Program-made: the position numbers and the translations under genes | Notes under the pieces: generated by a model | Database searches by the model: none | What the model saw: the letters and a program-made list of their open reading frames with translations, nothing else | Told to the model about the DNA's origin: nothing | Shown here: in pieces, positions 1,759 through 24,668 of the stretch | How positions within the stretch are numbered: position 1 is the stretch's first letter | Layout: each line of letters starts with the position of its first letter | Source: a virus | Lineage: Duplodnaviria > Heunggongvirae > Uroviricota > Caudoviricetes | Length of the DNA stretch: 64,000 bases | Strand: one strand, 5' to 3' | Virus record (IMG/VR): IMGVR_UViG_3300046692_000144 | Coordinates: 21,621 to 85,620 of that record

Positions 1759-3117
1759 ATGTCTACTAACTTCAAACCGATCGGGGGCCTGGGAGATACG
1801 GCCACCCCATCCGGAAAAGTTAAGAAACCAAGAGCCAAGAAGACGAACGAGCTGAGCTTGGACGAGCTGTACGCCAAGGCAGCCGAGATCGGGAAGATGA
1901 TGCCTTCGATCCGGAAGCAGATCATCGAGAAGGAAGACTTCTCCAAGATCCAGGATCGGTACTGCAACTCGGCCTGTGGTCTGTGCCCATCCAGTCGTCG
2001 TCCTAAACAAGTGACTTTGACCACTCAACAGGTCGATATCGTCATAGTTCAGGACCACAACGCTTTAGCCCAGATGTACAAATCCTCTGATGAAATGGAG
2101 CGTATCTACCGGGACATCATTGGCTTCCTGGCTCAGAAATATTTTCAACGGTTGAGCTACGCCGTAGTCAGTACTCTTAAGTGCTTGCCGCAAGCGTCTG
2201 ACCTTCGGGGTCAAACCGTGACAACCACCAAGATCAAACCATGTACTCCCTACCTTCACGAGGAACTTCGCAGGATCAAGCCTAAGGCGATCATCGTGAT
2301 GTCTACGAACTCGATCAGTGCTCTGGGTATCAAGGCCACCTGTTCGTCTAACCGTGGTGAATTCCACACGACTGACTACGGTACTGCGGTGATCACTCTC
2401 CACCCTAAGTCCTTGACGATGATCCGTCAGAATGCCTCAGGTAAAGAATGGGGTCCGGACTACTTCGAAGTCCTTGATCGTGACTTCGCTAAGGCTGCAC
2501 GGATTGCTCGTGGCGACCTGAAGGTAGTAAGTCTTGACGATGCTCTGGCCGAAGCTTCAACTCGGATCACCATTGCTCGATCTATGACTGACGTCAGAGC
2601 CATGATCAAGATCCTTAACGACCTTCCGGCGAACAAGATCATCAGCTTCGACTTGGAGACGACGAGCCTTGATGCCTGGGCGGCTAACGCAAAGATCATC
2701 ACTGCTCAGTTCGGATACACGGACCCTGCGGATGGCGTGATTAAGGCATTGGTATTCCCTCTGTGGCACAGGGCCAACAACTTCTACGATTCAAACGAAG
2801 CTTGGCCGTTGATTGCAGAATTGCTTCTGTCTCAACGACCTAAGGTTGGTCACAACATCAAGTTCGATATCATTTACACCTTCGTTACTACCGGTGTCCG
2901 TGTGGTTAACGCTGCGTTCGATACGTTGCTGTTACTGCACGCGATCAACTCTGGGTTGAAGAACAACTACAGTCTGAAGAAGGCTGTCTGGGACTTCTTA
3001 CCTGAGAGTGGTCTTGGCGGGTACGAAGACAAGCTCCCTGCCCTGACCAAGAGGAAGAAGGTGGTTGAAGGCGAAGAAGAGTCCGAGGAAGAGGAGGTGG
3101 GGGAATGCGACGAATAA
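1759..3117 (+). CDS. DNA polymerase A, N-terminal part: UDG family-4-like domain fused to a 3'-5' exonuclease (Exo I and Exo II motifs only)
   Basis: CNSACGLCPSS...VDIVIVQDHNA...LHPKSL resembles UDG family 4 (Cys cluster and HPS-like motif), but the GEAPG catalytic motif is replaced. ISFDLETTSLD is the Exo I motif and KVGHNIKFDIIY is Exo II. FDTLLLLHAIN aligns to Pol I FDTMLESYIL. The ORF stops before Exo III. Confidence 0.8.
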   Translation: MSTNFKPIGGLGDTATPSGKVKKPRAKKTNELSLDELYAKAAEIGKMMPSIRKQIIEKEDFSKIQDRYCNSACGLCPSSRRPKQVTLTTQQVDIVIVQDHNALAQMYKSSDEMERIYRDIIGFLAQKYFQRLSYAVVSTLKCLPQASDLRGQTVTTTKIKPCTPYLHEELRRIKPKAIIVMSTNSISALGIKATCSSNRGEFHTTDYGTAVITLHPKSLTMIRQNASGKEWGPDYFEVLDRDFAKAARIARGDLKVVSLDDALAEASTRITIARSMTDVRAMIKILNDLPANKIISFDLETTSLDAWAANAKIITAQFGYTDPADGVIKALVFPLWHRANNFYDSNEAWPLIAELLLSQRPKVGHNIKFDIIYTFVTTGVRVVNAAFDTLLLLHAINSGLKNNYSLKKAVWDFLPESGLGGYEDKLPALTKRKKVVEGEEESEEEEVGECDE

Positions 3118-3368
3118 AGCTGAGGATATACGAGAGGAGTAACTTCTACATCCGTAAGGCGAGTGCCGACGGCTCTCTGGTAGAGATTCAGAATCAGTAC
3201 TCAGGAATCATTGTTAAGAATCCAAGGATCAGATTTTCTCTGGTCCACGGGGTTCACTTAGTGGATAACAGCTACGAGGGCAATTTCTTTAACGACGGTT
3301 GGCTTCAGGACACCAATTCCCGGGGCTTCGAACAGAACGCTTACACGCGGGAGAACTACCGGGGATGA
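3105..3368 (+). CDS. hypothetical protein (first gene of the block inserted in polA)
   Basis: ATG preceded by GGAGGAGG. Overlaps the previous stop by 13 nt and the next start by ATGA. Confidence 0.35.
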   Translation: MRRIKLRIYERSNFYIRKASADGSLVEIQNQYSGIIVKNPRIRFSLVHGVHLVDNSYEGNFFNDGWLQDTNSRGFEQNAYTRENYRG

Positions 3369-3934
3369 AACTCTTCCTAAAACCAAAGCCTGGAGAGACG
3401 ATCAAGTATCTGGGGTTGGGTAGTTTCCGAGGAGACTACTACCGACGTGCGATAAGTGTTACGCCTGTGGATGGTTTCAACGTTCAGCTCGTACGGATTA
3501 ACACTGTCGTCAATCCTCGTGCGCTAAGGGGTGTTCTTGGTCCCTACCTTCTTTTTGAAGACCCGGGGAATGGCTTTGATTACACCCTCGAAACCACGGT
3601 TACGAAGGGGTTCCCCCGTGCCCCTAGCCCTGTCCACCTCAAAGCGGAATGGATAAGCACTATCGTTAGCGCAGAGATGATGAGTGATACTCAGTATGCG
3701 GCTGCGTTTGAACGGGAGCTGCGTAATAGGCTTGTCCGTTTTATTAACTTAAAGGCGAAAGGGCTTGGGGTTACCCATGAGATTTCTGGGGCAGATCTTC
3801 GGATCAGATTCGACATGCAGCCAGTTCCAGATGACCCTGAACACGTCCGTTGCTCAGTAACCTCTTCCGAACTTTACTTAGCTGTGATATCGTCTAGGCC
3901 TAGTGAAATACTCCAACGGGCCAACTTTCGATGA
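3365..3934 (+). CDS. hypothetical protein
   Basis: Translationally coupled (ATGA overlaps at both ends). Confidence 0.4.
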   Translation: MKLFLKPKPGETIKYLGLGSFRGDYYRRAISVTPVDGFNVQLVRINTVVNPRALRGVLGPYLLFEDPGNGFDYTLETTVTKGFPRAPSPVHLKAEWISTIVSAEMMSDTQYAAAFERELRNRLVRFINLKAKGLGVTHEISGADLRIRFDMQPVPDDPEHVRCSVTSSELYLAVISSRPSEILQRANFR

Positions 3935-4230
3935 TGATATCTACGATGAGGCTGAGTAAGCCTCTTGAGTTAAGGCTACATGTAGAAGATGCGATTATCG
4001 AGGCCAGTGTCTACTCTGCTGATGGCGGGTTCTTGGCACCGGCCTTCTCGTATGTCATGGGCAGTCCTATGGATCTTCGTAGGTCTGTCCTTGGTGTTCA
4101 CTTCTTTCAGCCTGAGAGGTGTCCGGGAGAAGTAGTCCACGTTGACATCACCGCCAGCATTAAGTTCGGTACCCAAGTTCTTAGCGACTACCGAGAAATG
4201 GTCAAACCCTTCCCACTAACCACAGAGTGA
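3931..4230 (+). CDS. hypothetical protein
   Basis: ATGA overlap with the upstream gene. Confidence 0.35.
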   Translation: MMISTMRLSKPLELRLHVEDAIIEASVYSADGGFLAPAFSYVMGSPMDLRRSVLGVHFFQPERCPGEVVHVDITASIKFGTQVLSDYREMVKPFPLTTE

Positions 4231-4236
4231 TCTGAG

Positions 4237-5241
4237 ATGTATTCAAACGTCTTGTTTAGTTTGCCTCCGGAAGCGAGGCTCTCTCTTAGGACTCCCAAGG
4301 ACTTCTTTTCGAACGACCCTGTAAAAAGGGTAGTATCGATCATGCATGACCCGGGTGGACCTGGTACAGAGAAGTTGGCAACCAACGTAGTGAGCCTGCT
4401 TCTAGGCTCTCCGGTGAAACTACTGCGTGCAATCAAAGGGGCCCGGTTCGTTCAAGGTTCAGTCAATGATCCGGATCGATTGTCGGTGTGTAGTTTTTAC
4501 GTTGACGGGGAGGAGGCGGTAAAGAAGTCTTCTAACGTCTACGAGGCAAACCTTGAGGCTATGGGTCGATTCAAGTCTATGGCGGAGAAGCCTTTGGGGG
4601 TAGGGAGATACCAATCAAATCTCTGTCAAGAGGTTTACCTGGGACCGTCATACCCCTCGTCTTTCCCAGATGTTACCGACGATAGTACTCTAGTCGAAAG
4701 CCAGACTATCCGTGATATTCACCTGGCTCGTTTGTCGCGGATGACAGATCGTGTAGGTGGGGTATATGGAGTCCACGCATTTGATAGATGGGCTAACGAA
4801 AGACCGATAGGAGCTATGACCACAACTATTGGTGGGCCCCACGATACCTTCCGAGCTGCGGATTTTGATGGTGACGTTACTGCGGAATGGCGTAATGTTC
4901 GGCAGGGTGCCATGGCGGAATTAGCCGATATGGCCGCACGTCAAATTAATGACAACATGGGTCGTAATGGGTTTCTTCGTCAGATGACGAGGGCACAAGA
5001 ACTGACTATTGTCGATGAAATAGATCGAGAGATTGTTAGAGAGTTGACTTTGGGAAGGCAGAATTCTCGTAACGAAGCCTCTCGTCGTATTAATCGGTTT
5101 GGGGAAGAACTTCATACCCAGTTCTACGATGAGATTGCTCGATCTGCGAGTACTGTGACTTACCGTACGGACGACATTCGGCCTCACCTACCACAGAACC
5201 AACGTAACCGAGGACCCGTTCCTCGTAACCAACGCTGGTAA
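4237..5241 (+). CDS. hypothetical protein (334 aa)
   Basis: Long ORF with phage-like codon usage, followed by a terminator at 5247-5271. Confidence 0.45.
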   Translation: MYSNVLFSLPPEARLSLRTPKDFFSNDPVKRVVSIMHDPGGPGTEKLATNVVSLLLGSPVKLLRAIKGARFVQGSVNDPDRLSVCSFYVDGEEAVKKSSNVYEANLEAMGRFKSMAEKPLGVGRYQSNLCQEVYLGPSYPSSFPDVTDDSTLVESQTIRDIHLARLSRMTDRVGGVYGVHAFDRWANERPIGAMTTTIGGPHDTFRAADFDGDVTAEWRNVRQGAMAELADMAARQINDNMGRNGFLRQMTRAQELTIVDEIDREIVRELTLGRQNSRNEASRRINRFGEELHTQFYDEIARSASTVTYRTDDIRPHLPQNQRNRGPVPRNQRW

Positions 5242-5246
5242 ACAAG

Positions 5247-5271
5247 GGCCCCATTAAGGGGCCTTTTCTTT
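5247..5271 (+). terminator. rho-independent terminator (GGGCCCC-loop-GGGGCC + U-run)
   Basis: Hairpin plus TTTTCTTT. Confidence 0.55.
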
Positions 5272-5310
5272 GGTATAAACAAAGTGCAATCCATAGCTTA
5301 GGAGGCTCTG

Positions 5311-5745
5311 ATGCCCAAGATAGTACCGTTGGTGGACATCCCTATGAATGCGTTTTTTAAGACGGGGCACGACCATAACAGTTCGATGCTCCACGCTTTG
5401 CGCAAGAAGACGAGACGTGCAGATGGTTTCTTCATGTTCATGTCGGAGATCATGATTAATGACACTTTCCCCCTGACAGGTCTTCGGTTTACCGGGTCTT
5501 GGCGGTTGGGGAAGATCAGTCTTACTCCGAGTAAGGATACGGACTACAAACTTGAAGTCTATCGTCGTTCTCTTTATCTGACTGGAACCTTAGGTACGGT
5601 CTACGAAGTAGAAGCGATGGATGACCATGCTCTTGCTGAGGCATTGCGCTCCTTGGAGAAAGGGGAAGACATCAGTCGCTACCCTTCCAAGTGGAACGTA
5701 TCTGAATCCAAAACTTTCGCCGAAACCGGCTTTGATATTGTCTGA
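5311..5745 (+). CDS. hypothetical protein
   Basis: 144-aa ORF with an RBS AGGAGG upstream. Confidence 0.4.
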   Translation: MPKIVPLVDIPMNAFFKTGHDHNSSMLHALRKKTRRADGFFMFMSEIMINDTFPLTGLRFTGSWRLGKISLTPSKDTDYKLEVYRRSLYLTGTLGTVYEVEAMDDHALAEALRSLEKGEDISRYPSKWNVSESKTFAETGFDIV

Positions 5746-5756
5746 GGAAGTAACCA

Positions 5757-6319
5757 TGTTCGAATACAAGAATGTAAAGCCGCTGACCAATGTTCCACTC
5801 GCTTGCTTCAAAGCTATGGGTCTTAGCCGAGATCGGGATCTGTACGAACTTCGTCTTGGTGCTGTACGCAATGATGGTTACTTCCTGGTGAAGCTGCGTG
5901 AGGATGAGAGCAGCGTATCTGCGTTCACCCTTGAAGGTGATCACGCCGGTTCGTACTTCATCGGTCAGATTCAGCCAAGCCCTTCGGCAGTAGATCCTAA
6001 CCGTGTGTATCACGAACTGTTCATCCACGGTGGCAGCCGAGACGCAACTGCGTTCTGCAAGCACCCAAGCGAGATTATGAATCTCCTCAAGGGCCTTGAG
6101 CTAAACGGGACAGATAGTCTGTTCGGTCTCTCCGAGTACTGGGAGGCATCCTTGGATCATCCTTTCCAAGAGAAGTTTGTAGAGCATCCTCAGGATCTTC
6201 GTTTCGAGATGCTGTTCGGGGATAACTCTTTGTTCGGTGGCAACTCTCAGATGGATGATGGTGACATGGACGATTACTTTGGTATGGGTGGCATGGGCTC
6301 GGGAGGTATCTACGAATGA
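5757..6319 (+). CDS. hypothetical protein with acidic/Gly-rich C-terminus
   Basis: ATG at 5757 preceded by GAGGAAG. The track ORF 5621 is an unlikely N-extension overlapping the previous gene. Confidence 0.45.
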
Positions 6320-6780
6320 GTGGTGGAAATATCAAACCGCTGCACGCGATGCCTCAGTACTGCTTCCCAGGCGTCAAAGGTGATCCAGGTGTCCTAAAGG
6401 CAGTACGGACTATGGCCAAGCCTATCCATGGTATGTTCATGGTTCGTAACTTGAACACCGAACAGACGTTGGGTTCGTTTGTCATGGGTAACACCTCCGG
6501 CTACGATGGTCGTTGGTTTCTTGGTCGTATTCGTAAACACAAAACCCAACCAGGCCGTTTCGAAATTCTGATCCGTCGTAATAAGACGTGCTACTATAAA
6601 ACCGTCGATTCTGAACATGATCTTGCAGACGAATTGCGGTTCATGGACGTAGATGCAGACGTCGAATTCTCTAGCGCTTCCGGTGGGTGGATAACTACGC
6701 CCGACGCAGAGTTTACAGAAATAGGGTTCTCCTCTGGGGAGCCATCGAGGACAAACGGATGGGAAAGTCTGTCGCAGTAA
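6316..6780 (+). CDS. hypothetical protein
   Basis: ATGA overlap with the upstream gene; runs into the polA part 2 start. Confidence 0.4.
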   Translation: MSGGNIKPLHAMPQYCFPGVKGDPGVLKAVRTMAKPIHGMFMVRNLNTEQTLGSFVMGNTSGYDGRWFLGRIRKHKTQPGRFEILIRRNKTCYYKTVDSEHDLADELRFMDVDADVEFSSASGGWITTPDAEFTEIGFSSGEPSRTNGWESLSQ

Positions 6781-8348
6781 AAGAAGAAGCACCGGTATAC
6801 AACACGTATGAGGACTTCCCTCCGGAGGATCTCTACCAGTATGCTGGTGTTGACTGCTTAGCGACAACGGGGGTACTGAACGCAGTATTCCCCAAGATCG
6901 TAGAGCAGAAGTCGTACATGTATTCAAACGGTGGGATCATCGTAGGTGGTAAAGCGCCTGCGATCATCGACTTCATGGATAAGGTAGAAATGCCTGCACA
7001 TGAGTTCCTCATTGACCTGGAATTGAATGGTCTTCGGTACGATGTAGAACTGAATAAGAGCCAGTCGAAGAAGATTCAGGAGGAGTTGCCAGCGTTAGAG
7101 GACAACGTCTTCTCCTTGTTCGGGAAGAAGTTCAACCCTGACTCGGGTAAGGAACTCGGGGATCTTCTTTATCGTGAGCTTGGGTTTACCCCGCCGAGTT
7201 ACACGAAGAAGAATGAGCCGTCTGTCGATGGGGACGCACTGGCTTCCTTGGCTAAGACCCATGACCTTGAATGGTTACGGGTCCTTGCTAGACGAAACAA
7301 CCTGGCATCGGTAGACCGTACGTTCTTCCGTAACTATGTCAGTGACTTCGTGAAGTCTGACGGTCGTATTCACCCGAGTTACAACCTCTTCGGTACTAGT
7401 TCGTATCGAATCACCGGTGACAAACCAAACCTCACCCAATTGCCTAACGCCCAGACCGAGTCGAAGCTTGGGTATGCGATTCGACAGTGCTACATCGCTG
7501 ATCCCGGTCACCTGTTCCTCTGTGCTGACCAAAGCTCTGCCGAAGTGAAGATCTTGGGTGCTCTGTGTAAAGACCCGAAACTGCTCCGGGCTATTGCAGA
7601 AGGTAAGGACTTCCACTCGTACTCTGCTAGTCAGATGCATGGCATTCCTTACGAAGAGATCGTCTGGCACTTGGACTACGAAGGTGACGACGTTGCTATC
7701 CTTGCTATCAAGAAGAAGTACAAAGGCTTGCGTCAAGGCTCGAAGGCTCTGACCTTCGGAATCCTTTATGGCTCCAGCGTTAAGGGCATCGCTTACAACC
7801 TGAACATCACCGAAGCGGAAGCTACTCGTCTCATCGCAATGTACTTCAAAGAGTTCCCACTCATTGAGGTGTATGTGAACGACGCTCATGCAATGGCGAA
7901 GTACAACCATTACGTGATGAACACCTTCGGTCAGGCCAAACGTGAATACGGGGCTATGGACATCTTCCGTAAGACTGCGGTTTACAACGCAGCTTTCCGG
8001 AACGCTCAGAACGTACGTGTTCAGAGTACTGCGTCTACTACCGGTCTGTACGCCTTCTCGAAGTTGAACGAGGCGATCAAACCAATCGGTGGTCGTTCTA
8101 TCTGCACTGTGTATGACTCTGTTGAACTTGAAGTTCCTTTCAAGAAGACCGCAGAGACCATCGAAGCCACCTTCTACACGATGGAAGATCGTCTGGTAGA
8201 AGACTTCGACTGGTTGGATCTACCGATAGCCATCGACTGTGAGATCGGCCCTAACTGGGGTCAGCAGGTCAAGGTTCATCGTGGTATCACCCAGGCAGAA
8301 GTTGAGAAACTGATGCTGGATAAATACCAAATAAACATGGCTGCATAA
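6759..8348 (+). CDS. DNA polymerase A, C-terminal part (Exo III motif plus polymerase domain)
   Basis: YQYAGVDCLATTGVL aligns to Pol I Exo III YAAEDADVTLQL. RIHPSYNLFGTSSYRITGDKPNLTQLP is motif A. KILGALCKDPKLLRAIAEGKDFHSYSASQMHG is the O-helix/motif B region. VYDSVELEV is motif C. The start could instead be the GTG at 6687, which overlaps the upstream gene by 94 nt. Confidence 0.85.
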   Translation: MGKSVAVKEEAPVYNTYEDFPPEDLYQYAGVDCLATTGVLNAVFPKIVEQKSYMYSNGGIIVGGKAPAIIDFMDKVEMPAHEFLIDLELNGLRYDVELNKSQSKKIQEELPALEDNVFSLFGKKFNPDSGKELGDLLYRELGFTPPSYTKKNEPSVDGDALASLAKTHDLEWLRVLARRNNLASVDRTFFRNYVSDFVKSDGRIHPSYNLFGTSSYRITGDKPNLTQLPNAQTESKLGYAIRQCYIADPGHLFLCADQSSAEVKILGALCKDPKLLRAIAEGKDFHSYSASQMHGIPYEEIVWHLDYEGDDVAILAIKKKYKGLRQGSKALTFGILYGSSVKGIAYNLNITEAEATRLIAMYFKEFPLIEVYVNDAHAMAKYNHYVMNTFGQAKREYGAMDIFRKTAVYNAAFRNAQNVRVQSTASTTGLYAFSKLNEAIKPIGGRSICTVYDSVELEVPFKKTAETIEATFYTMEDRLVEDFDWLDLPIAIDCEIGPNWGQQVKVHRGITQAEVEKLMLDKYQINMAA

Positions 8349-8352
8349 CGAA

Positions 8353-8394: not shown

Positions 8395-8664
8395 ATGCAA
8401 CTTGTACAGGCATTGGTAGATCGTTTCTATTTAGTACCGCTACCCAAAGAAACCTATATGAAGGTTCATGAGAACTCGTATCGGATTTTCCAAGTAGGCA
8501 AGGATCGTATCTGGTATGCCTTGGATCGTGAGGGCTCCCCGGTAAACGTCCTTACGGTGGGTCAAGAAAGGAGTCTAACGATAGTGAGAGTAACCATCTC
8601 TCCGCCTAAGAAACTTAACCAGAAACAACGATATGTCTTTGACTGTCGGTTTATTAGTGAATGA
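8395..8664 (+). CDS. small-protein paralogue family A, member 1
   Basis: MQLVQALVDRFYLVPLP... shares the N-terminal helix motif (F/L)Vx(T/A)(M/L)(I/V)xR(F/L)xG and is about 86-92 aa like the 7 downstream genes. Confidence 0.5.
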   Translation: MQLVQALVDRFYLVPLPKETYMKVHENSYRIFQVGKDRIWYALDREGSPVNVLTVGQERSLTIVRVTISPPKKLNQKQRYVFDCRFISE

Positions 8665-8939
8665 GCGGAGGGGTTATGAACTTTGTTCAAACAATGATTG
8701 ACCGTCTAATAGGCGTACCTCTCCCCAAGGAGTTGTACCTCCGGATAAAAGAGACGCCGTACCGTATAGTCGGCGTAGACAGCAAGGGTGTGTATTACAC
8801 GCATATTAATGAGACAGGTCGAAGCCTTCTGGCTCCTCATGTCTACAGCGACCTGAATATTAAAGGTTTCTCAGTAGAGACCGAGAGGAAGCTGGTAAAC
8901 ACACCTAAGTACTTCATCGACTGTCAGTTTGATTACTGA
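8661..8939 (+). CDS. small-protein paralogue family A, member 2
   Basis: MNFVQTMIDRLIGVPLPKELYLRI... parallels member 1 (LVPLPKETYMKV). Confidence 0.5.
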   Translation: MSGGVMNFVQTMIDRLIGVPLPKELYLRIKETPYRIVGVDSKGVYYTHINETGRSLLAPHVYSDLNIKGFSVETERKLVNTPKYFIDCQFDY

Positions 8940-8951
8940 GTAGGGGGAGTT

Positions 8952-9212
8952 ATGCAGTTTGTAAGTGAAATGATCCGGCGTTTCTCTGGACGTGTACTTC
9001 CCCGAGATACGTTCCTGACACTGGGTAGTAGCACCCACCGAATAGCAAAGGTTACTGACAAAGGGATCTATCTACGGATAGGGGGACGAATGCAGGAAGA
9101 GTGCATAACGGTAGAGAGCAACCCATCCATGCGGCTTATGGTGGTCAAAATTTCTTCCGCTAAAAAGTTAGTAAAGAAACCGCGTATATACTTTGAGTGC
9201 CGCTATAGCTAG
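8952..9212 (+). CDS. small-protein paralogue family A, member 3
   Basis: MQFVSEMIRRFSGRVLP...; C-terminus YFECRYS parallels member 1 (VFDCRFIS) and member 2 (FIDCQFDY). Confidence 0.5.
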   Translation: MQFVSEMIRRFSGRVLPRDTFLTLGSSTHRIAKVTDKGIYLRIGGRMQEECITVESNPSMRLMVVKISSAKKLVKKPRIYFECRYS

Positions 9213-9220
9213 GAGGTGTT

Positions 9221-9481
9221 ATGCGATTAATAGAAACGTTGAAGCGCCACCTACTTGGCAAGGCGGTAGGTAACGATCTTTGGCTTTCCCTCGCCGGAGT
9301 AAGTTATCAAATCACGGAGGTAATTCCAGGTGGTATTCGGTACCGGCATCTTGGGTCTTCCAGCACAGGAGTCTTGGATGAAGGCACCTATAAGAACCTG
9401 CACATCCAAACTGTGAAGATAGAGAATTCTAACAAAGTTCTCGAACGTGGACGCATCCACCTCTACTGTAGGTATAAATGA
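9221..9481 (+). CDS. small-protein paralogue family A, member 4
   Basis: MRLIETLKRHLLGK...; C-terminus IHLYCRYK. Confidence 0.45.
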   Translation: MRLIETLKRHLLGKAVGNDLWLSLAGVSYQITEVIPGGIRYRHLGSSSTGVLDEGTYKNLHIQTVKIENSNKVLERGRIHLYCRYK

Positions 9482-9741
9482 GTATGGACTTCGTTAGCAC
9501 GTTGGTGCGTCTTTTCGATGGCCTTGGTAGTCCTGAGGGGCTATCTTTCAAGTATGGAGATAGGAGTTACCCCATAGAGGAAGTAGGTGCTGACTTTATA
9601 AAGTATCGGACTGATTACAACGTAGAAGTGTTGTATGCAAAAGCGACAAGCTACAGGTACTACATACGTGGTGTCCGCATCCGTGGAAGCAGCTTGATCC
9701 ATGGAAAAAGAAGAATCGTTATAGATATAGGGAGTGGATGA
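9478..9741 (+). CDS. small-protein paralogue family A, member 5
   Basis: MSMDFVSTLVRLFDGLG...; C-terminus RRIVIDIGSG. Confidence 0.5.
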   Translation: MSMDFVSTLVRLFDGLGSPEGLSFKYGDRSYPIEEVGADFIKYRTDYNVEVLYAKATSYRYYIRGVRIRGSSLIHGKRRIVIDIGSG

Positions 9742-9999
9742 ATGTACTTTGCAACGATGATGGTGAAACTGTTCTCGAACCAGAGTATGCCTCGTGGTGT
9801 TTACTTCAAGTACTCTCGTCGGTACTACTTGATAACCGGTGTTGAGGGTAGCCAAGTTGACTACCTGTCTGATGACGGGGGTTCTGGATCACTGACTGCT
9901 GGCCGCTCTGATTACCGTGTTCGATCAGTGACCACAGAGGGTAGCCGTTTCCTCCCATCTAAGCGACGTGTCGTGATTGATATCGGAGGTAACAGTTGA
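9742..9999 (+). CDS. small-protein paralogue family A, member 6
   Basis: MYFATMMVKLFSNQSMPRGVYFKY...; C-terminus RRVVIDIGGNS. Confidence 0.5.
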   Translation: MYFATMMVKLFSNQSMPRGVYFKYSRRYYLITGVEGSQVDYLSDDGGSGSLTAGRSDYRVRSVTTEGSRFLPSKRRVVIDIGGNS

Positions 10000-10259
10000 T
10001 GGACTTCGCACGAACGATGATCAAGCTATTCGCCAACAAGGATATTCCCAACGGGGTCTACTTCAAATACGGTCGTAGGCTTTACAAGATCCACATGGTT
10101 ACCAACCTAAGAATTCACTACCATACGGATACTGGGACACCTGCCTCGTTAGAGGTCGCCCGAAATACTGCGTATAGCATACGTTCAGTTATCACCGAAG
10201 GGAGCCGTCTGATTAAGAACTCTTCAAAAACGATAATCGATATCGGTGGAGCGGCCTAG
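9996..10259 (+). CDS. small-protein paralogue family A, member 7
   Basis: MMDFARTMIKLFANKDIPNGVYFKY...; C-terminus KTIIDIGGAA. Confidence 0.5.
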   Translation: MMDFARTMIKLFANKDIPNGVYFKYGRRLYKIHMVTNLRIHYHTDTGTPASLEVARNTAYSIRSVITEGSRLIKNSSKTIIDIGGAA

Positions 10260-10510
10260 TGGACTTCGTAACTACGATGGTGGAGAGGTTTGGTAGCAGG
10301 GCGTTAGACGCTCCGGTAAGCTTCGAGTACCGGGGAGTAGATTACCCAATACTATCGGTGAATAAGGATCGGTTGAAGTATCGTTTTTCGGATGGCGATG
10401 AGGATACTTTATCCGTAGTCGCACACAAAGGGCTCTTCACCGTGACCGATATCATACTGAAGGGCAGTCGTTTGGTTTGTAGAGCGGTACTATTCAAAGT
10501 AGAGGCTTAA
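10259..10510 (+). CDS. small-protein paralogue family A, member 8 (GTG start)
   Basis: (V)DFVTTMVERFGSRALDAPVSFEY... Confidence 0.45.
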   Translation: MDFVTTMVERFGSRALDAPVSFEYRGVDYPILSVNKDRLKYRFSDGDEDTLSVVAHKGLFTVTDIILKGSRLVCRAVLFKVEA

Positions 10511-11241: not shown

Positions 11242-11772
11242 ATGAAACACGTTAAAGGCGATTTGATCCTAGGCTTCAGCGAAGGTGACTTCGACGTAAT
11301 CGTCCACGGTTGTAACTGTGGTAATAACATGGGCGATGGCATTGCCAGGACTATCAAGGAGAAATACCCGGAAGCTTACGAGGCGGATTGCCGTACGGTT
11401 CGTTTCGACAAAACGAAGTTGGGGACGTACACCCACGCAGATATCTACCGGGATCTCCGAAACTCAGACGGTGTTCGTCGTGGAGTCTTTTTAGGTACGA
11501 TCATCAATGCCTATACCCAGTTCCACTGGTACGGCAAGGGTGTTCTCTGTGACTACGATGCGTTGCGATCTGTGTTCAGGCAGTTGAAGCCGGACTACGG
11601 TAATCAAGGCAAGTCCTTCGGTGTGCCTGCGATTGGAGCTGCTCGTGCTGGCGGTGACTGGCGGATCATTTCTGCAATCATCGACGAAGAGCTGGAAGGC
11701 GAGGAAGTGATCTTCGTTGAGTACAACGGTGTTGACGCTGTTCGTGGTGATTACAAGAGGAATATGAGATGA
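11242..11772 (+). CDS. macro-domain-like protein (putative ADP-ribose binding or processing)
   Basis: VIVHGCNCGNNMGDGIARTIKEKYPEA fits the macro-domain signature N-x-x-N-x-x-(L/M)-G-x-G-(V/I)-A-x-x-I. A second Gly-rich motif GVPAIGAARAGGDW follows. No search was run. Confidence 0.4.
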   Translation: MKHVKGDLILGFSEGDFDVIVHGCNCGNNMGDGIARTIKEKYPEAYEADCRTVRFDKTKLGTYTHADIYRDLRNSDGVRRGVFLGTIINAYTQFHWYGKGVLCDYDALRSVFRQLKPDYGNQGKSFGVPAIGAARAGGDWRIISAIIDEELEGEEVIFVEYNGVDAVRGDYKRNMR

Positions 11773-12777: not shown

Positions 12778-13276
12778 AACGTACCACTATGGCTGTGACC
12801 CCGCTTGGCGAACTCACACAGTCACCATCCTGAACCAAGATCATAAAGTTATGTGGTCGAAGGTAATGGACTTGTCTGTCGGTGGGTTTTCGAAGTCTCT
12901 TGACCAGATCCCCATGGAGCAGTACCCCCCTAAGACTATCGTTTTTGAGCGATACGTCTCCTACGCTGGCAAAGCAAACAAATATTCCGAGTACATCCTT
13001 ATGGCTCTTGGTGCTACCATGGACCGAACGAGGATGGCTGAGCAATTCTTTTTCAGAGCGCTTGATTGGAAGACTGCCTTGGTTAAGAGGGAGTTCCGGG
13101 AGAGAGGCTTTGTCAACGAAAGTACTCGGATGGACAAGAAGTTCAGCAAAGCAATGGCATTACACTTGACCGGTCACAAGTTCAAAACTGACCATGAAGC
13201 AGATGCTGCGTGTTTAGCAGCCATAGGAATAAGAAGTGGACCAGGCCTTAGATCCGCCCCTTTTGAAACCGCCTAA
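12758..13276 (+). CDS. RuvC-like Holliday-junction resolvase
   Basis: N-terminal YGCDPAWRTHTVTIL resembles the RuvC ILGIDPG...G motif. C-terminal HEADAACLAAIG resembles RuvC ADAADALAIA. Confidence 0.5.
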   Translation: MLEVTTETYHYGCDPAWRTHTVTILNQDHKVMWSKVMDLSVGGFSKSLDQIPMEQYPPKTIVFERYVSYAGKANKYSEYILMALGATMDRTRMAEQFFFRALDWKTALVKREFRERGFVNESTRMDKKFSKAMALHLTGHKFKTDHEADAACLAAIGIRSGPGLRSAPFETA

Positions 13277-14129
13277 GAAGATTTTCTTCGGCTCAGATTT
13301 CCATTATGAGCGCTTTGGCAATCAATATGCCCCAGCTATGACCAAGGACTATATTCCGGAAGATGCTCCTTTCGACTATCTGATCCTTGCGGGCGACATG
13401 ACTCATACCCTCCACGTACCCGGACTCCTCAAAGCAGTTCGTGAGTACAGCGGTGTTCCTGTCTTCTACACACCAGGCAACCATGAGTTCTGGGATGGTG
13501 TCAAGCATCACTGGAACATGGACGAACAAGTCCAATACATGCGGGAGGGCTTGGCAAAGGTCGAGGGAGTTACCTTCCTTTACAACGAAGGCATGGACAT
13601 TCCCGACACCAACTACTCGATCTTCATGTCTCCGTGGTTCACCAACCTCGTTAAGTACGAAGATTACGACGCAGACGGTAACGTCTTCCAAGTACCTCAG
13701 TCTGAGATCCAGAAGTGCATCGGGGATTACCACCGTAGCCGAGTCAATGGATTCATGTTGACTGCTGAAGATCACATCAAGATGAATCAGGAGGCAGTGT
13801 CTGCGTTGGAGACCTGGCTTGAGAGAGACGTTCTTAGTAAGGGCCGTATCCCGATCATCGTTACTCACTTTGGTCCGTCACGTCGTAGTGCTCATCGAGA
13901 CTTCCCTCAGCGGGATATCGTTGCAGCTTACTTCAATACCGACTATCTTGACGACGGTGGTCCGGGCTACATCTGGCCTAAGGGCTCTACCTGGATTCAC
14001 GGTCACACCCATCAGAACGTCGATTATATGATCGGGGATATGCGGGTGGTCACCAACCAGTACGGTTACAAAGGCGAGTCGAGCACTAACGACTCTTTCG
14101 AATTCATGAAGCACATAGAGGTTAGGTAA
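13236..14129 (+). CDS. calcineurin-like metallophosphoesterase
   Basis: Motifs LILAGDMTH, GNHEFWDG, IVTHFGP, HGHTHQ. Confidence 0.7.
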   Translation: MDQALDPPLLKPPKKIFFGSDFHYERFGNQYAPAMTKDYIPEDAPFDYLILAGDMTHTLHVPGLLKAVREYSGVPVFYTPGNHEFWDGVKHHWNMDEQVQYMREGLAKVEGVTFLYNEGMDIPDTNYSIFMSPWFTNLVKYEDYDADGNVFQVPQSEIQKCIGDYHRSRVNGFMLTAEDHIKMNQEAVSALETWLERDVLSKGRIPIIVTHFGPSRRSAHRDFPQRDIVAAYFNTDYLDDGGPGYIWPKGSTWIHGHTHQNVDYMIGDMRVVTNQYGYKGESSTNDSFEFMKHIEVR

Positions 14130-16965: not shown

Positions 16966-17050
16966 GCGGATATGGTGGAATCGACAGACACGAAAGGCTT
17001 AGGTCCTTTTGCCGAAAGGCGTGAGAGTTTGAATCTCTCTTTCCGCACCA
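16966..17050 (+). tRNA. tRNA-Leu (anticodon TAG), class II with long variable arm, CCA encoded
   Basis: Acceptor GCGGATA / TTTCCGC, anticodon arm AAAGG-CTTAGGT-CCTTT, variable hairpin GCC-GAAA-GGC, T-arm GAGAG-TTTGAAT-CTCTC, ACCA. Confidence 0.7.
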
Positions 17051-17145
17051 GTTATAAGGCAAGAGTGAAAGCCGGACTCTGAGAAGTAAATCCGAGAGGG
17101 AGACAGATATAAACCTCTACGAACGTTTCTCTTGCTTTGTTTTAC

Positions 17146-17227
17146 GGAGAGTTGGCAGATTGGGAATGCGCGGCGCTGTAAACGCTGTTCGAAAGTAGAA
17201 GTGGTTCGATTCCATTACTCTCCACCA
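17146..17227 (+). tRNA. tRNA-Tyr (anticodon GTA), long variable arm, CCA encoded
   Basis: Acceptor GGAGAGT / ACTCTCC, anticodon arm CGGCG-CTGTAAA-CGCTG, T-arm AGTGG-TTCGATT-CCATT, ACCA. Confidence 0.7.
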
Positions 17228-17232
17228 TATAT

Positions 17233-17318
17233 TCCGGGATAGGCAAATTGGCAACCCCACTTGGCTGTTAACCAAGCGTTTAATTACACTGCTGGTTCGA
17301 CCCCAGCTCCCGGAGCCA
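17233..17318 (+). tRNA. tRNA-Asn-like (anticodon GTT) with unusually long variable region (about 14 nt)
   Basis: Acceptor TCCGGGA / TCCCGGA, discriminator G, CCA. Anticodon arm CTTGG-CTGTTAA-CCAAG. T-arm GCTGG-TTCGACC-CCAGC. The D region is irregular. Confidence 0.55.
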
Positions 17319-17338
17319 TTTAACTAAGAGCACAGTAC

Positions 17339-17593
17339 ATGACTGAAATAGTATTTGCTTTTAACGCAATATCGAGTAGTTCTGACCGCTACCTCGGTAC
17401 CTGCAGAGTAAAAGACGGAGACAGTATCTTCGGAGCTTTGCAGGACGCACTAAAAGAAGCAACCGGTGAAGAGTACGCTTACTTGGAATCGGTAGACTTG
17501 TACACTGACAACCTTGAGTACCAAGATCAGTGCAGAGGTTTTGTTTCTCTTCTTGTGAAGGACTTCCAACGAGCCTACGAGTTAGAACAATGA
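17339..17593 (+). CDS. hypothetical protein
   Basis: ORF. Confidence 0.4.
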   Translation: MTEIVFAFNAISSSSDRYLGTCRVKDGDSIFGALQDALKEATGEEYAYLESVDLYTDNLEYQDQCRGFVSLLVKDFQRAYELEQ

Positions 17594-17823
17594 AACTCAC
17601 AATGATCCCTATGGATCAAAACAACCGTATGTTCCGACCCATTGCCATTGGCCTTAACGAAGGTCGTCTGTTCGTAAGAACTGATTGGTGGTGGGTCGGG
17701 TTTCGCTGTACCCCCGATGGAAAAGTTAGGGCATTCATATGTCAACTGAAAGCAACTCCGTTCGCCTCGCTCGTATCGAGCTTGAGCTTCTTGAAAAACA
17801 AGCTGAAGACCCTTCTGACCTAG
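17590..17823 (+). CDS. hypothetical protein
   Basis: ATGA-coupled ORF. Overlaps the next gene by about 85 nt in another frame. Confidence 0.3.
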   Translation: MKLTMIPMDQNNRMFRPIAIGLNEGRLFVRTDWWWVGFRCTPDGKVRAFICQLKATPFASLVSSLSFLKNKLKTLLT

Positions 17824-18302
17824 AATGGCAGAAGATGATGACCCGAGATGTTCTTCAGGTCGTCCAGGTCATTTCAGAGCAAGGCCACTCTGGTGGAAGT
17901 ATTGGTCCTTTCCTTAACCTGGTTAGGAAGTGTGCTCTGCAAGAGAACCTTACCCCTCTTACTGGCGAAGACTCTGAGTGGAGTGAAGTAGGTCCCGCCA
18001 TGTGGCAAAACAAGCGATACTCTGCGGTGTTCAAAGACGACGAAGGTAAGGCCTACGACATCGAAGGTTATATCGGTGTTGATCCTGATGGCTGGACGTA
18101 CACGGGTGGCGGTAAGCAGACTACCTGCTACATCGAGTTCCCGTATACGAAGAGCCGTAAGTATTACCCTCGACATGAGCTTATTGCCAAGGCCCCGAGC
18201 TTCACTATGACATTCGAAGAGTCGCTCTGCGATACGGTCGAAGAAGTCATGGAGATCTACGTCAACGCAGGTATTCCTGTACGGGACAAAGTCCTGGTAT
18301 AA
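17739..18302 (+). CDS. hypothetical protein
   Basis: 187-aa ORF. Confidence 0.45.
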   Translation: MSTESNSVRLARIELELLEKQAEDPSDLEWQKMMTRDVLQVVQVISEQGHSGGSIGPFLNLVRKCALQENLTPLTGEDSEWSEVGPAMWQNKRYSAVFKDDEGKAYDIEGYIGVDPDGWTYTGGGKQTTCYIEFPYTKSRKYYPRHELIAKAPSFTMTFEESLCDTVEEVMEIYVNAGIPVRDKVLV

Positions 18303-18314
18303 GGACTGTGTAGA

Positions 18315-18382
18315 AGGAATGTAGCTCAACTGGTAGAGCACACCAACTTTGGTGAGTCGCAGGTTCGAATCCTGCCATTGGG
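18315..18382 (+). ncRNA. aberrant tRNA-like element (canonical D- and T-arms, 4-nt 'anticodon' loop, poor acceptor pairing) followed by a GGGCCC-UUCG-GGGCCC hairpin/terminator
   Basis: gtagctcaactggtagagc is a D-arm and gcaggttcgaatcctgc is a T-arm. caccaactttggtg forms a 5-bp stem with a 4-nt loop. Acceptor aggaatg / cattggg pairs at only 4 of 7 positions. Confidence 0.35.
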
Positions 18383-18428
18383 CCCTTCGGGGCCCTTTCT
18401 ATTTGCCTATCAAAACAAGGACTTGTCT

Positions 18429-18629
18429 ATGTTTCTAAAAGTGGAGGGAAAGACGTACCGTAAGCGCCGTGGAAAGATTGTGGAGATTCCTAAGGAATGG
18501 GTACACGTAGTTCCACCAAAGAGCTGTAAACGGGAACGCAAACAAGCCAGCGTGGCTAAAGGACGTAGTCGTCATCGTAGTTATGTTTGGAGGAAAGATG
18601 CAGATAGTTCCGATAGCCGCATCGATTGA
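18429..18629 (+). CDS. hypothetical basic protein
   Basis: ORF; the start is uncertain. Confidence 0.3.
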   Translation: MFLKVEGKTYRKRRGKIVEIPKEWVHVVPPKSCKRERKQASVAKGRSRHRSYVWRKDADSSDSRID

Positions 18630-18786
18630 CGAAGAGTTACCTCGGTTGCAGGACTGTGACCGCTGGGGTAATTTAGTAGTTTGGGAAAAGGGCAGAAAAA
18701 GATGGTCTATTGTGACCCTCGAACACCTTCTTGATTACCGTATTTGTTACAGTCACTGGGCATACTTGCCAAAGGACATTGAATGA
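18583..18786 (+). CDS. hypothetical protein
   Basis: ORF. Confidence 0.3.
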   Translation: MFGGKMQIVPIAASIDEELPRLQDCDRWGNLVVWEKGRKRWSIVTLEHLLDYRICYSHWAYLPKDIE

Positions 18787-19079
18787 AATCAGTTCTAGTA
18801 TACGACTACTCCGGCCAAGGAGAAGGTCAGACGATTAAGATCGTGTTCACCAACTCACCAAGCATCACTGATGAACAAGCCTTGGCAGATATGAAGGAAG
18901 ACATGGATGGGTATTTCCACGTCGGGATCAAACTCATAGACCTTGAGTGCATTGCATTCGACTCGAAGTGGATGCGGCTTATCGAGGCGCACGTACCGGT
19001 ACTGTTCAAGTACATCACCGGCAATGACAAAGATTACTTGCTGAGTATTGACTATGACTATCATGTGAATTACAGTTGA
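18783..19079 (+). CDS. hypothetical protein
   Basis: ATGA-coupled ORF. Confidence 0.4.
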   Translation: MKSVLVYDYSGQGEGQTIKIVFTNSPSITDEQALADMKEDMDGYFHVGIKLIDLECIAFDSKWMRLIEAHVPVLFKYITGNDKDYLLSIDYDYHVNYS

Positions 19080-19106
19080 CGGACTAATCCTCAACGGGTA
19101 CTCGCA

Positions 19107-19319
19107 ATGAAAGTTTTGATCAACTGTAAGGACTATGAATTCGAAGAAGGTGAAAAGCTTACCTACGAGATGATCCTATCTCAGGTAGGCTACGATCCTA
19201 AATCAGTAATCACCGTAGTTTATTCTCGCGGTAACACCTGTGGCAGTCTGACCTTCGGCCAAGGTATTGGCGTTGTTGAGAATTTGAAGATCGATGCCTG
19301 TCGTACTGGCAACGCCTAA
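19107..19319 (+). CDS. hypothetical protein
   Basis: ORF. Confidence 0.4.
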   Translation: MKVLINCKDYEFEEGEKLTYEMILSQVGYDPKSVITVVYSRGNTCGSLTFGQGIGVVENLKIDACRTGNA

Positions 19320-19326
19320 GCTTTAC

Positions 19327-19402
19327 GGGCCGTTAGCATAGTGGTTCAATGCGTGGACCTCATAAGTCTCGGATAGGTGTTCAATTCACCTACGGCCCAC
19401 CA
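19327..19402 (+). tRNA. tRNA with anticodon CAT (elongator Met or Ile2/lysidine), CCA encoded
   Basis: Acceptor GGGCCGT / ACGGCCC with the G1-C72 pair intact, D-arm GCAT...ATGC, anticodon loop CTCATAA, T-arm GGTG-TTCAATT-CACC, ACCA. Confidence 0.75.
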
Positions 19403-19416
19403 ATCAAGGTACTCAC

Positions 19417-19635
19417 ATGAAGTGCTCTAAACACCCTACTTACGAGGCAACGCAGGCTCCAACTGCGGATTGTAAGGAATGTAAGTTAATATGGGATATA
19501 ACTCAGATGTCTCCTGCGGAGGTAGAAGCAGGAAGACAGCGGTTAGAGAGCAGACGAGTAATGACGTCTACTAACTTCGGTGAGATTGTCGAAGGGATCT
19601 TTGATGTGATCGGTGACATCATAGACTTCGACTAA
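19417..19635 (+). CDS. hypothetical Cys-containing protein
   Basis: ORF. Confidence 0.4.
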   Translation: MKCSKHPTYEATQAPTADCKECKLIWDITQMSPAEVEAGRQRLESRRVMTSTNFGEIVEGIFDVIGDIIDFD

Positions 19636-19806
19636 AGCAGTGATGATACCGTTGTTTATCTGCGATTGCGGAAACGGTGTCCCTAGTTAGAACAACGGTA
19701 AGTCGGGTACTACCAGGCAGGCGGTTCAGAGTCCTGTTGTTGCAGACCCTCTCCGGTAGTTTGATCAACTATGTTCTCTCGACGTTTGAAATAACGTCAC
19801 TTTTTC

Positions 19807-19894
19807 GGCGGGTTGACAGAGTGAACGATTGTAGCTGACTTGAAATCAGCCGGGTCTAACGGCCCCCAGGGTTTGAATCCCTGACCCGCCTCCA
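19807..19894 (+). tRNA. tRNA-Ser (anticodon TGA), class II, CCA encoded
   Basis: Acceptor GGCGGGT / ACCCGCC, anticodon arm CTGA-CTTGAAA-TCAG, long variable arm CCGGGTCTAACGGCCCC, T-arm CAGGG-TTTGAAT-CCCTG. Confidence 0.8.
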
Positions 19895-23195: not shown

Positions 23196-24668
23196 TTACT
23201 TAGAGTTAGCGTCAATCAGTTTATTGATATCTTTCTTGATGTGTTCCTTATCCTGGCTCATGGCGTGGAGGTATTCATCAATGGACTTGCCTGCGGGCTT
23301 ACCGAAGAACCCTCGCGGGAGACTTGAGTGGTACTTATCAACTTGTACGTGACGATCATTTTCCTGCAGATGGGCATGGCTTCCTCTTCGGACTGCCCGA
23401 GCAACTACCTGACGGATCTTGGAATCATTCCAGTGAGGCTCCATCACTTGCATGTGACGAACACCTTTTAGGTTGATACCTTCTGCACCAGAGGACGAGA
23501 GGAGTAACGTATCGAACTTGCCGTCGTTGAACTCATCGACCATTCGTTTCTTTTCAGCTTTGGAAAGCTCACCGGTATAGACTCCGTGGGAGATCTTCTT
23601 GGCTTCCAGCTCTCTGCTTAGGTGTGCCAGGCCGCTGCCCAAGTAGTTAGAGTAGACAACCCCACGATACTTCTTACCGAGACTCTTACGCAGAGCATCC
23701 TGATCTTTTATCATGGCCTGGAACTTAGGGGAGGCCTCGACTTGCTCTGGTTTGGTCGTATAGGAAGCGTAGCTGTTGGCTATTTGGCGAACACCAGAAG
23801 AGAAAGCATTCAGAGAGGCATTCTCTTTTTTAGATAGCGGCAGACCCGCACGGATCTTCATACGGATAGGCCAAGGTATGTTGTTCTCTGCGAAACGATA
23901 GAACTTGTACTGGTCTTTGGACATCTCTACGTTATGGATCTTCTCGGTGGTCTTGGCGAACTCTTCCGGCATCTCTTTCTGAGCATCGTAGTTATGAACG
24001 GTGTCACCGATCAATTTCTTAAGACGACTCTTATTCGTAAGGCGCTCAGTCTCACCTGCGGTTGCCCCGAAGAAAGAAGCAAAGCTCCCGGGTTCGACGT
24101 GATCGGTGGCCACGAACTCTTTTTTGAACTCGGCTTCAGTGTCTGGAAGTTTTTTGTAGCCAGCAGCAAGGTTAACAAGGGCCGCTATGTCGTGCGGTTT
24201 ATTATACATAGCCGTACCGCTCAAAATAAGAGCTTTATCCGAAGAGTCCCGGACTAGAGCGTGTGCCTTATTCTTTGCAGTATCTCGGTTCCGAAGACGA
24301 TGGGCTTCATCGATGATCAGAAGGGAGTTTTTATTCTTGGAAATATCTTTTGCACGATTGACTAGCTCTTCGTGAGAGTAGTATTTGGTGCGCTTAGGAT
24401 CGAGTTTGATCCCGAATTTCTTAGCTTCGTCTGGGAATTGCTTGATCACGGATGCAGGAGCAGAGATTACAACGTCTTTGTTAGGATGTTGCTTCTGGGC
24501 TCTGGCAGCAGCCCTCAAGGCGAGCAGGGTTTTACCACTGCCCATAGAGTGTTGAGCCAGTACCCCTTCACCTTTCTCAAGTAGACCGAGGACTTCGTCA
24601 TGATGAGGGCTGTTACTTTTCTTTTTCTTAGGCTCAGCCTTGGCGATTTTGATGAGGTACGGGTTCAC
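23196..24668 (-). CDS. SNF2/Rad54-family DEAH-box helicase
   Basis: HSMGSGKT (Walker A), LLIIDEAHRLRN (DEAH), LILSGTAMYN, and the C-terminal helicase block LLLSSSGAEGINLKG...QVVARAVRRGS. Confidence 0.8.
   Translation of the reverse strand: MNPYLIKIAKAEPKKKKSNSPHHDEVLGLLEKGEGVLAQHSMGSGKTLLALRAAARAQKQHPNKDVVISAPASVIKQFPDEAKKFGIKLDPKRTKYYSHEELVNRAKDISKNKNSLLIIDEAHRLRNRDTAKNKAHALVRDSSDKALILSGTAMYNKPHDIAALVNLAAGYKKLPDTEAEFKKEFVATDHVEPGSFASFFGATAGETERLTNKSRLKKLIGDTVHNYDAQKEMPEEFAKTTEKIHNVEMSKDQYKFYRFAENNIPWPIRMKIRAGLPLSKKENASLNAFSSGVRQIANSYASYTTKPEQVEASPKFQAMIKDQDALRKSLGKKYRGVVYSNYLGSGLAHLSRELEAKKISHGVYTGELSKAEKKRMVDEFNDGKFDTLLLSSSGAEGINLKGVRHMQVMEPHWNDSKIRQVVARAVRRGSHAHLQENDRHVQVDKYHSSLPRGFFGKPAGKSIDEYLHAMSQDKEHIKKDINKLIDANSK

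Follow-up and report, generated by a model that had tools for sequence, protein, structure and literature searches.

A family-A DNA polymerase encoded as two proteins was identified in a 64,000-nucleotide stretch of DNA from a virus of the Caudoviricetes (IMG/VR record IMGVR_UViG_3300046692_000144, positions 21,621 to 85,620), which we analysed over its whole length and refer to as the window. We put the probability at roughly 0.8 that the genes at 1759-3117 (the N-half) and 6759-8348 (the C-half) specify one replicative polymerase made of two subunits, of the type in which a uracil-DNA glycosylase (UDG)-like domain is joined to a family-A polymerase (UDG-PolA). The DNA_pol_A fold, polymerase motifs A, B and C and all three exonuclease motifs are present, with exonuclease and polymerase not on one polypeptide. 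The open reading frames (ORFs) and motif strings that an earlier note on this DNA had listed from the letters alone were all recovered at the coordinates given here.

The N-half (452 aa) comprises a family-4 UDG-like domain, Exo I and Exo II, and the C-half (529 aa) comprises a short leader, the Exo III helix, thumb, palm and fingers; both genes, and every intervening gene, protein motif and residue located below, lie on the plus strand. Exo I (FDLETTSLD, 2647-2673, aa 297-305, with D298 and E300) aligns with Klenow FDTETDSLD, Exo II (HNIKFD, 2851-2868, aa 365-370, with N366 and D370) aligns with Klenow NLKYD, and FDTLLL follows at 2917-2934 (aa 387-392). Exo III (YQYAGVDCL, 6834-6860, aa 26-34, with Y28 and D32) stands on the C-half, ahead of motif A (LFLCADQSSAEVKIL, 7512-7556, with D257 and E262, aligning with Taq LLVALDYSQIELRVL), motif B (RQGSKALTFGILYG, 7731-7772, with R325, K329, F333 and Y337) and motif C (TVYDSVELE, 8106-8132), in which Y452, D453 and S454 replace the canonical H-D-E. 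This Y-D-S is 98-100% conserved in the clade and has HDS as its counterpart in Bacillus phage JL and HDA in Pseudomonas phage PMBT14; UDG-PolAs in general may have lost the motif-C Glu. At its longest, the C-half ORF begins at a GTG at 6687; a GAGGA Shine-Dalgarno sequence precedes the ATG at 6759 by 7 nt, and this start gives a protein whose length fits its homologues (e.g. P0121, 529 aa).

Profile and structure matches place the break between Exo II and Exo III. In Pfam, the N-half matched UDG (31.9 bits) and DNA_pol_A_exo1, the latter over profile positions 9-112 of 173 only, and the C-half matched DNA_pol_A over positions 4-381 of 381 at 209.7 bits (cut-off 34.3). The halves take adjoining ranges of the PHROG_17 polymerase profile, 471-782 for the N-half and 794-1249 for the C-half; a clade profile of the N-half matches Klenow chain residues 14-128, and the C-half matches Taq and Klenow in the PDB with E values of 1e-45 to 1e-42. 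When aligned with MAFFT to the single-chain polymerases of JL (gp163, 944 aa) and PMBT14 (gp45, 834 aa), the two halves cover the full length, 'LGGYED' lies on one side of the break and the Exo III Y-x3-D on the other, and the N-half has no Exo III of its own. One exonuclease domain is thus shared out over two polypeptides, as the earlier note had proposed, the N-half carrying Exo I and Exo II and the C-half Exo III.

All relatives examined share this break point, which lies in the loop preceding Exo III, and it occurs in at least 120 clusters per half, clusters being defined at 90% identity. A large protein collection held 242 clusters homologous to the N-half, the best 120 of which are 398-491 aa long apart from one 260-aa fragment on an 884-bp contig, and 642 clusters homologous to the C-half at E ≤ 1e-20, the best 120 of which are 328-602 aa long; none of the best 120 clusters of either half was a fused protein. 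Essentially all split N-half homologues finish with 'LGGYEDxLP..K' followed by a Glu/Asp-rich tail of variable length, and all C-halves open with a short leader and 'TYEDF..LYxYAGxDC'. In the window the acidic tail, EGEEESEEEEVGECDE, occupies 3067-3114 and is the new C-terminus made by fission; N-half tails are of low complexity and run to about 15-30 residues, and the leader of the C-half, which has 15 in the window, varies in length in relatives. The clade carrying the split has genomes of 130-200 kb. Its closest cultured members, found by tblastn against annotated phages at about 40% identity, are Salmonella phage Arash and Vibrio phages D69, D148 and D181, in each of which the N-half and C-half are separate genes. 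DNA nearly identical to the window was not found in the phage collection, and a single-protein scan of viral contigs with the N-half returned two distant loci only, at 22% identity. The ratio of non-synonymous to synonymous substitution rates (dN/dS) is 0.07 for the N-half and 0.10 for the C-half, and mass spectrometry has detected Arash gp168, the equivalent of the N-half, at 98.7% coverage (PMC10585845). The split goes unmentioned in the Arash paper (PMC10585845), and full-text literature searches returned no description of it.

Separation of the halves is far more variable than the break itself; some 27 contigs have the two together. No gene lies between them in the relatives L012, where the ORFs overlap at TAATG, and L013, where they overlap by 8 nt; one gene intervenes in Vibrio phage D69, two in L009 and L011, seven in the window, L014 and L015, ten in L007, and 13, spanning about 8 kb and including NAMPT and NMNAT genes, in Arash. 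The intervening genes show no BLAST similarity between lineages, apart from a set of three paralogues common to the window and L007. Because the same break occurs with 0 to 13 intervening genes, we infer that fission came first and that gene blocks were acquired later, lineage by lineage. The split would then be old, and the 3.6-kb block of the window a later insertion and not its cause. The earlier note had described the polymerase gene as split by this block, which the synteny comparison does not bear out: it points to the block being a lineage-specific insertion at a pre-existing break.

The block itself consists of seven same-strand genes (3105-6780, about 3.6 kb). Gene 1 (3105-3368, 87 aa) overlaps the N-half stop by 13 nt and has 75% amino acid identity to the L014 and L015 copies, which were called independently there (dN/dS 0.18). 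Gene 2 (3365-3934, 189 aa; 89% identity to the same two copies, dN/dS 0.56) and gene 3 (3931-4230, 99 aa; 97%, dN/dS 0.12) each begin with an ATGA overlap with the gene before. Gene 4 (4237-5241) is 334 aa from its first ATG; the L015 and L014 copies were called shorter, at 299 and 141 aa respectively, and over the shared part it is 100% identical to them. The last three genes are tandem paralogues: gene 5 (5311-5745, 144 aa) is 45% identical to L007 gene 14184 and differs from L015 at 10 nt, all synonymous; gene 6 (5756-6319, 187 aa), with a Gly/Asp/Met-rich tail and a dN/dS of 0.03, is 24% identical to gene 7 and 37% to L007 gene 14638; and gene 7 (6316-6780, 154 aa) overlaps the C-half start by 22 nt. 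Genes 5 and 6 are each 25% identical to gene 7 in alignment A3, BLAST alignments within the triplet give 24-29%, and the triplet (5311-6780) is conserved ahead of the C-half in L007 and confined to a sublineage of 14 clusters. Since the block genes were called independently in L014 and L015 and have dN/dS values of 0.00-0.56, we regard them as real. None of the seven had a match in Pfam, PHROG, NCBIfam or PADLOC, in agreement with the earlier observation that they lack endonuclease, intein or reverse transcriptase signatures, and an AlphaFold2 model of gene 7 (predicted local distance difference test score, pLDDT, 82.5) had no fold match in the PDB. The block is linked to the polymerase by position alone.

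Translational coupling of all seven genes with the polymerase halves, also claimed earlier, stands only in part. Most junctions overlap by 4, 13 or 22 nt; the others are gaps of 6 nt (4231-4236), 10 nt (5746-5755) and 69 nt (5242-5310), the last being the only sizeable intergenic gap in the block. Within this gap, at 5244-5266 on the plus strand, a consensus scan picked out a terminator-like hairpin, as a pattern match only, with a 9-bp stem including 6 G-C pairs followed by the T-rich TCTTTGGTAT. It divides genes 1-4 from the paralogue triplet and the C-half.

Residue conservation and structure prediction both argue that the two halves work as one enzyme. Counted over 119 N-halves and 110 C-halves, some with as little as about 42% identity, Exo I D298 and E300, Exo II N366 and D370, and Exo III Y28 and D32 are each 100% conserved on their own chains, as are D257 and E262 of motif A; the polymerase motif residues as a set (D257, E262, R325, K329, F333, Y337 and D453) are 97-100% conserved. 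When the halves were joined end to end and modelled with AlphaFold2, using an alignment of unpaired homologues of both, the result was a canonical Klenow-like UDG-PolA fold with a mean pLDDT of 92.1 and a predicted template modelling score (pTM) of 0.88. Low confidence is limited to the N-terminus and to residues 225-227 and 438-458, the last stretch being the acidic tail (pLDDT below 50) plus the first six residues of the C-half; the Exo III helix, residues 474-500 of the model, is the first helix of the C-half. The joined model superposes on single-chain Klenow with a TM score of 0.84 over about 600 residues (E 3e-30), and near full length on single-chain phage UDG-PolAs, among them those of Enterococcus phage Porthos, Achromobacter phage Motura and Vibrio virus SBP1, with 985-1033 columns aligned for these three. 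On the basis of these sequence and model data, the halves would bind non-covalently after translation, with the Exo III helix, as the first structured element of the C-half, packing into the incomplete exonuclease fold of the N-half. The proofreading site would thereby be composite, the N-half supplying D298, E300 and D370 and the C-half Y28 and D32, and the UDG-like domain would take up the same position on the complex as in single-chain UDG-PolAs.

Several observations weigh against such an association and have to be set beside an alternative in which the halves are functionally independent, the C-half acting by itself as an exonuclease-deficient polymerase and the N-half as a free UDG-type repair or base-sensing protein with a vestigial exonuclease. 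The AlphaFold2 model was built from a covalently joined chain and is therefore biased towards association. The L015 N-half is 99% identical to that of the window and its C-half only 71.5% identical, so the partners are not tightly co-evolved and the polymerase part has been exchanged separately from the N-half between near-identical genomes; this objection is tempered by the swapped C-half segment beginning after the Exo III helix. Going by its sequence, the hairpin at 5244-5266 could uncouple expression of the two halves. Independence would also accommodate the distance of up to 8 kb between the genes in Arash, whose annotators took gp168 for a UDG. Exonuclease motif residues that stay invariant in homologues of as little as about 42% identity are nevertheless not expected of vestigial half-sites, the Exo III helix has no fold partner inside the C-half, PolAs are reported to need the exonuclease domain for stability even when it is inactive (PMC10201439), and the joined model brings all parts into the canonical arrangement with high confidence. 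We therefore consider independent function unlikely; of the two outcomes that the earlier note had left side by side, reassembly from two subunits is strongly favoured over one vestigial half by the invariant exonuclease residues and the intact Klenow-like fold.

Joining of the halves after transcription or translation, by a group I intron, a split intein, ribosomal frameshifting or bypass, or programmed DNA excision, is a far less probable explanation, even though group I introns do break the C-half in Arash (L001, OQ632216; 3257-3528, minus strand) and in L011 (two introns, 12891-13149 and 13497-13795), as detected with Rfam, and L007 carries an HNH gene at the equivalent place in its C-half. 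In Arash, gp154 ('DNA polymerase nu') and gp152 ('DNA polymerase theta') are exons of one C-half gene around this intron. Fractured genes with split inteins are also known from metagenomes (PMC2677866). At the break between the N-half and C-half, the Rfam search that detects the Arash and L011 introns found no group I intron in the window, and the overlapping ORFs of L012 and L013 leave no room for one. No Hint or intein domain or endonuclease was present, and neither the acidic tail nor the leader is long or constant enough to be half an intein. Site-specific excision was rejected, as the block encodes no recombinase and its borders lack direct repeats, and ribosome bypass cannot apply to 3.6-8 kb of expressed, selected genes. 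Scarcely credible is a last reading, in which the split is an assembly or sequencing artefact or a decaying pseudogene. A distant relative, L019, is indeed split at an A4G6 homopolymer, but the arrangement of the window turns up again in independent assemblies from JGI, Logan, ENA and NCBI as well as in the cultured phages Arash, D69, D148 and D181, the halves are parted by whole genes under purifying selection, and both are themselves under such selection. For the window, this also disposes of the sequencing frameshift that the earlier note had named as a way in which the split could prove false.

How the two-protein polymerase may have arisen is suggested by fused and minimally split relatives. 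An exhaustive HMMER search with the joined sequence recovered P0255, 858 aa long and 43% identical, and P0256, truncated at 717 aa, both of which run uninterrupted through the loop ('GGYEDELGKLPAGKTYEDFP') and lack the acidic tail; P0255 occurs on 3 contigs from independent sources, in the same primase/ribonucleotide reductase neighbourhood as split members. In a neighbour-joining tree, the whole family is monophyletic with respect to PMBT14 and JL (97% bootstrap), and P0255 and P0256 fall in a subclade (95% bootstrap) that also holds the minimally split P0290 and P0298, in which two ORFs overlap out of frame. The break in P0290 lies at the A4G6 homopolymer of L019 (2040-2075), where a one-base indel would fuse the gene; this is a fission of very recent date or else an assembly error, and other single-contig cases could likewise be assembly errors. 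With bootstraps of only 13-46 for the deep position of the fused subclade, its fused state may be ancestral or a re-fusion. We propose that an ancestral single gene with a UDG-like domain, a 3'-5' exonuclease and a polymerase was cut in the surface loop that runs from 'LGGYEDxL' to the Exo III helix, probably by a frameshift that yielded two overlapping, translationally coupled ORFs. Such an origin fits the overlapping out-of-frame ORFs in the subclade of the fused forms, and fission by frameshift has been described for S-SBP1-like phages (PMC10201439). The new termini would then have been lengthened, the N-half gaining an acidic tail and the C-half a short leader, and the junction would afterwards have gathered unrelated accessory genes lineage by lineage, seven of them in the window.

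The UDG-like domain at the N-terminus is well conserved within the clade, whose profile matches the family-4 UDGs 4zbx, 1vk2, UdgX and 1ui0 with E values of 5e-8 to 3e-4. At the position of motif A, QDHNA (2050-2064, aa 98-102) aligns with the family-4 GEAPG and has QENPY in JL and GDNPN in PMBT14 as counterparts; the family-4 Pro and Gly are lost and the acidic residue is kept as Asp99. Q98 is 98% and D99 95% conserved, and residue 100 is H, Y or F. The motif B position, LHPKS (2398-2412), holds His215-Pro216 (H215 99%, P216 96% conserved) and is followed by R223 and Q224, both invariant, and by G228. Four Cys between 1963 and 2244, namely C69 (1963), C73 (1975), C142 (2182) and C162 (2242), are 98-100% conserved in 120 sequences and, by analogy with what is known of family-4 UDGs, are putative [4Fe-4S] ligands. 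Family-1 UDGs have Asp at the motif A position (GQDPY), so Asp99 is compatible with catalysis. Glycosylase activity is disfavoured by changes or variability in the motif A Pro-Gly, in the next 'GRPF' loop and in the Asn before 'KC', where the window has Ser and only 59% of the clade have Asn, and QD and His are lost in deeper branches, including the fused forms. The earlier note was thus right that motif A is substituted; its description of the domain as non-catalytic is not established, given the conservation of Asp99, His215 and the four Cys. Among UDG-PolAs, the N4-like UDG domains lack the His hairpin and are inactive, the catalytic residues persist in the SPO1-like domains, and activity is found in the SP15-like ones, which excise dU from the template ahead of the polymerase site (PMC10201439; bioRxiv 10.1101/2025.03.26.645540). 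For the clade of the window, the strong conservation argues for a specific function of the UDG domain, which may be catalysis or base binding.

Compared with known systems, the polymerase is a variant on a known theme and not a new kind of system. UDG-PolAs have been divided into N4-like (cluster 17), SPO1-like and SP15-like (YerA41, phiLo) subgroups (Czernecki et al. 2023, PMC10201439; Missoury et al. 2025, bioRxiv 10.1101/2025.03.26.645540). The window polymerase shares their order of UDG-like domain, 3'-5' exonuclease and polymerase, and like JL and PMBT14 it has H/Y-D-S/A in motif C instead of HDE; it differs in being on two polypeptides and in having QDH-A instead of GEAPG in UDG motif A. 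Compared with the N4-like and SPO1-like groups, its family has at most 27% identity to them and belongs to neither, and it forms the separate clade from JL and PMBT14 seen in the neighbour-joining tree.

Fission of a family-A polymerase has a precedent in S-SBP1-like T7-type cyanophages, where PolA is cut between exonuclease and polymerase in a solvent-exposed loop, probably by a frameshift, and the predicted complex is identical to the unsplit relative (PMC10201439). The cut in a loop is a common feature, as are the adjacent overlapping ORFs of L012, L013 and L019. In S-SBP1, however, the whole exonuclease domain is separated from the polymerase and the genes are adjacent, whereas in the window the cut lies inside the exonuclease domain and leaves Exo III with the polymerase, and in its far larger and older clade the halves stand up to 13 genes (about 8 kb) apart. 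The family-B polymerase of PhiKZ, a chimallivirus, is made of DNAP-N and DNAP-C, encoded by distant genes and forming a stable 1:1 complex with motif A on one chain and motif C on the other (PMC13648687). Here too the cut crosses a catalytic domain and an active site would be drawn from two chains, as experiment has established for PhiKZ; the families differ (A versus B), and the composite site would be that of the exonuclease here and is that of the polymerase in PhiKZ. A split minimal Pol III alpha is known in jumbo phages (PMC7824862). Polymerases interrupted by introns or homing endonucleases (SPO1-type; the OM43 phages such as MEP401, PMC10580990) are likewise spread over several ORFs, and C-halves of relatives of the window carry introns or an HNH gene, but the break between N-half and C-half has neither intron nor endonuclease and is permanent, at the protein level. 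What is new is a cut inside the exonuclease domain of a UDG-PolA, in a large and deep clade, at a variable junction that holds up to 13 genes.

Comparison of the window with L015 and L014 revealed a segment at about 6900-8350 in which, relative to L015, the polymerase part is 59-75% identical at the DNA level (71.5% for the protein), with flanks on both sides that are 97-100% identical. The divergent segment begins just past the Exo III helix and ends at the stop codon, and looks like replacement of a polymerase-module cassette. It is conceivable, though on balance we doubt it, that fission created two exchangeable modules and a protected landing pad, such that the polymerase module can be swapped between co-infecting phages while the UDG/exonuclease module stays as it is, the junction is a favoured place for the capture of accessory genes and proofreading exists only in the heterodimer. 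If so, polymerase swapping might serve escape from host defences that target the polymerase or might change nucleotide specificity; the junction genes, 0-13 in number and unrelated between lineages, would be co-expressed with the replisome and shielded from deletion by two co-required halves; and proofreading could be tuned by subunit stoichiometry.

Both sides of the polymerase genes hold further repeated features. Directly upstream of the N-half lies an ORF-free, AT-rich region of 1.1 kb (650-1758, core 772-1434), which contains a large imperfect palindrome with 95-nt arms (918-1012 and 1320-1414, 84% complementary) and nested arm pairs, and in which 12 of the 14 window copies of TTAGACA are clustered. 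This region looks like an iteron or operator array and, judged by sequence, may be a replication origin or have a regulatory role. The C-half is followed directly, at 8395-10510, by eight tandem paralogous genes of 83-92 aa (22-48% identity), whose copy number varies among L014, L015 and L016 and which have distant homologues in L007. The wider context resembles that of a large Arash-like phage. Among the genes at 11242-11772, 13236-14129, 23196-24668 (minus strand), 28008-29807, 38429-39928 and 40864-41814, listed as one group, are a weak Macro-domain match, a metallophosphoesterase, an SNF2-type helicase, a NAMPT/NAPRTase-family protein, a Ro60/TROVE protein with a vWA domain and a DHH phosphoesterase, and six tRNA genes are found in the window at 16966-19894 and 33496-33569.

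Taken as a polymerase in two proteins, these genes widen the range of ways in which a family-A polymerase is built, for which the only earlier case was the clean fission between exonuclease and polymerase in a small group of T7-like cyanophages, reported in 2023. They also correct public annotation, in that Arash gp168, recorded as 'uracil DNA glycosylase', is the polymerase N-half. The natural series from fused through minimally split to widely separated halves can be used to study the fission of an essential gene and the variability of the junction that it leaves, and a two-subunit UDG-PolA offers a tractable system for the role of the UDG domain.

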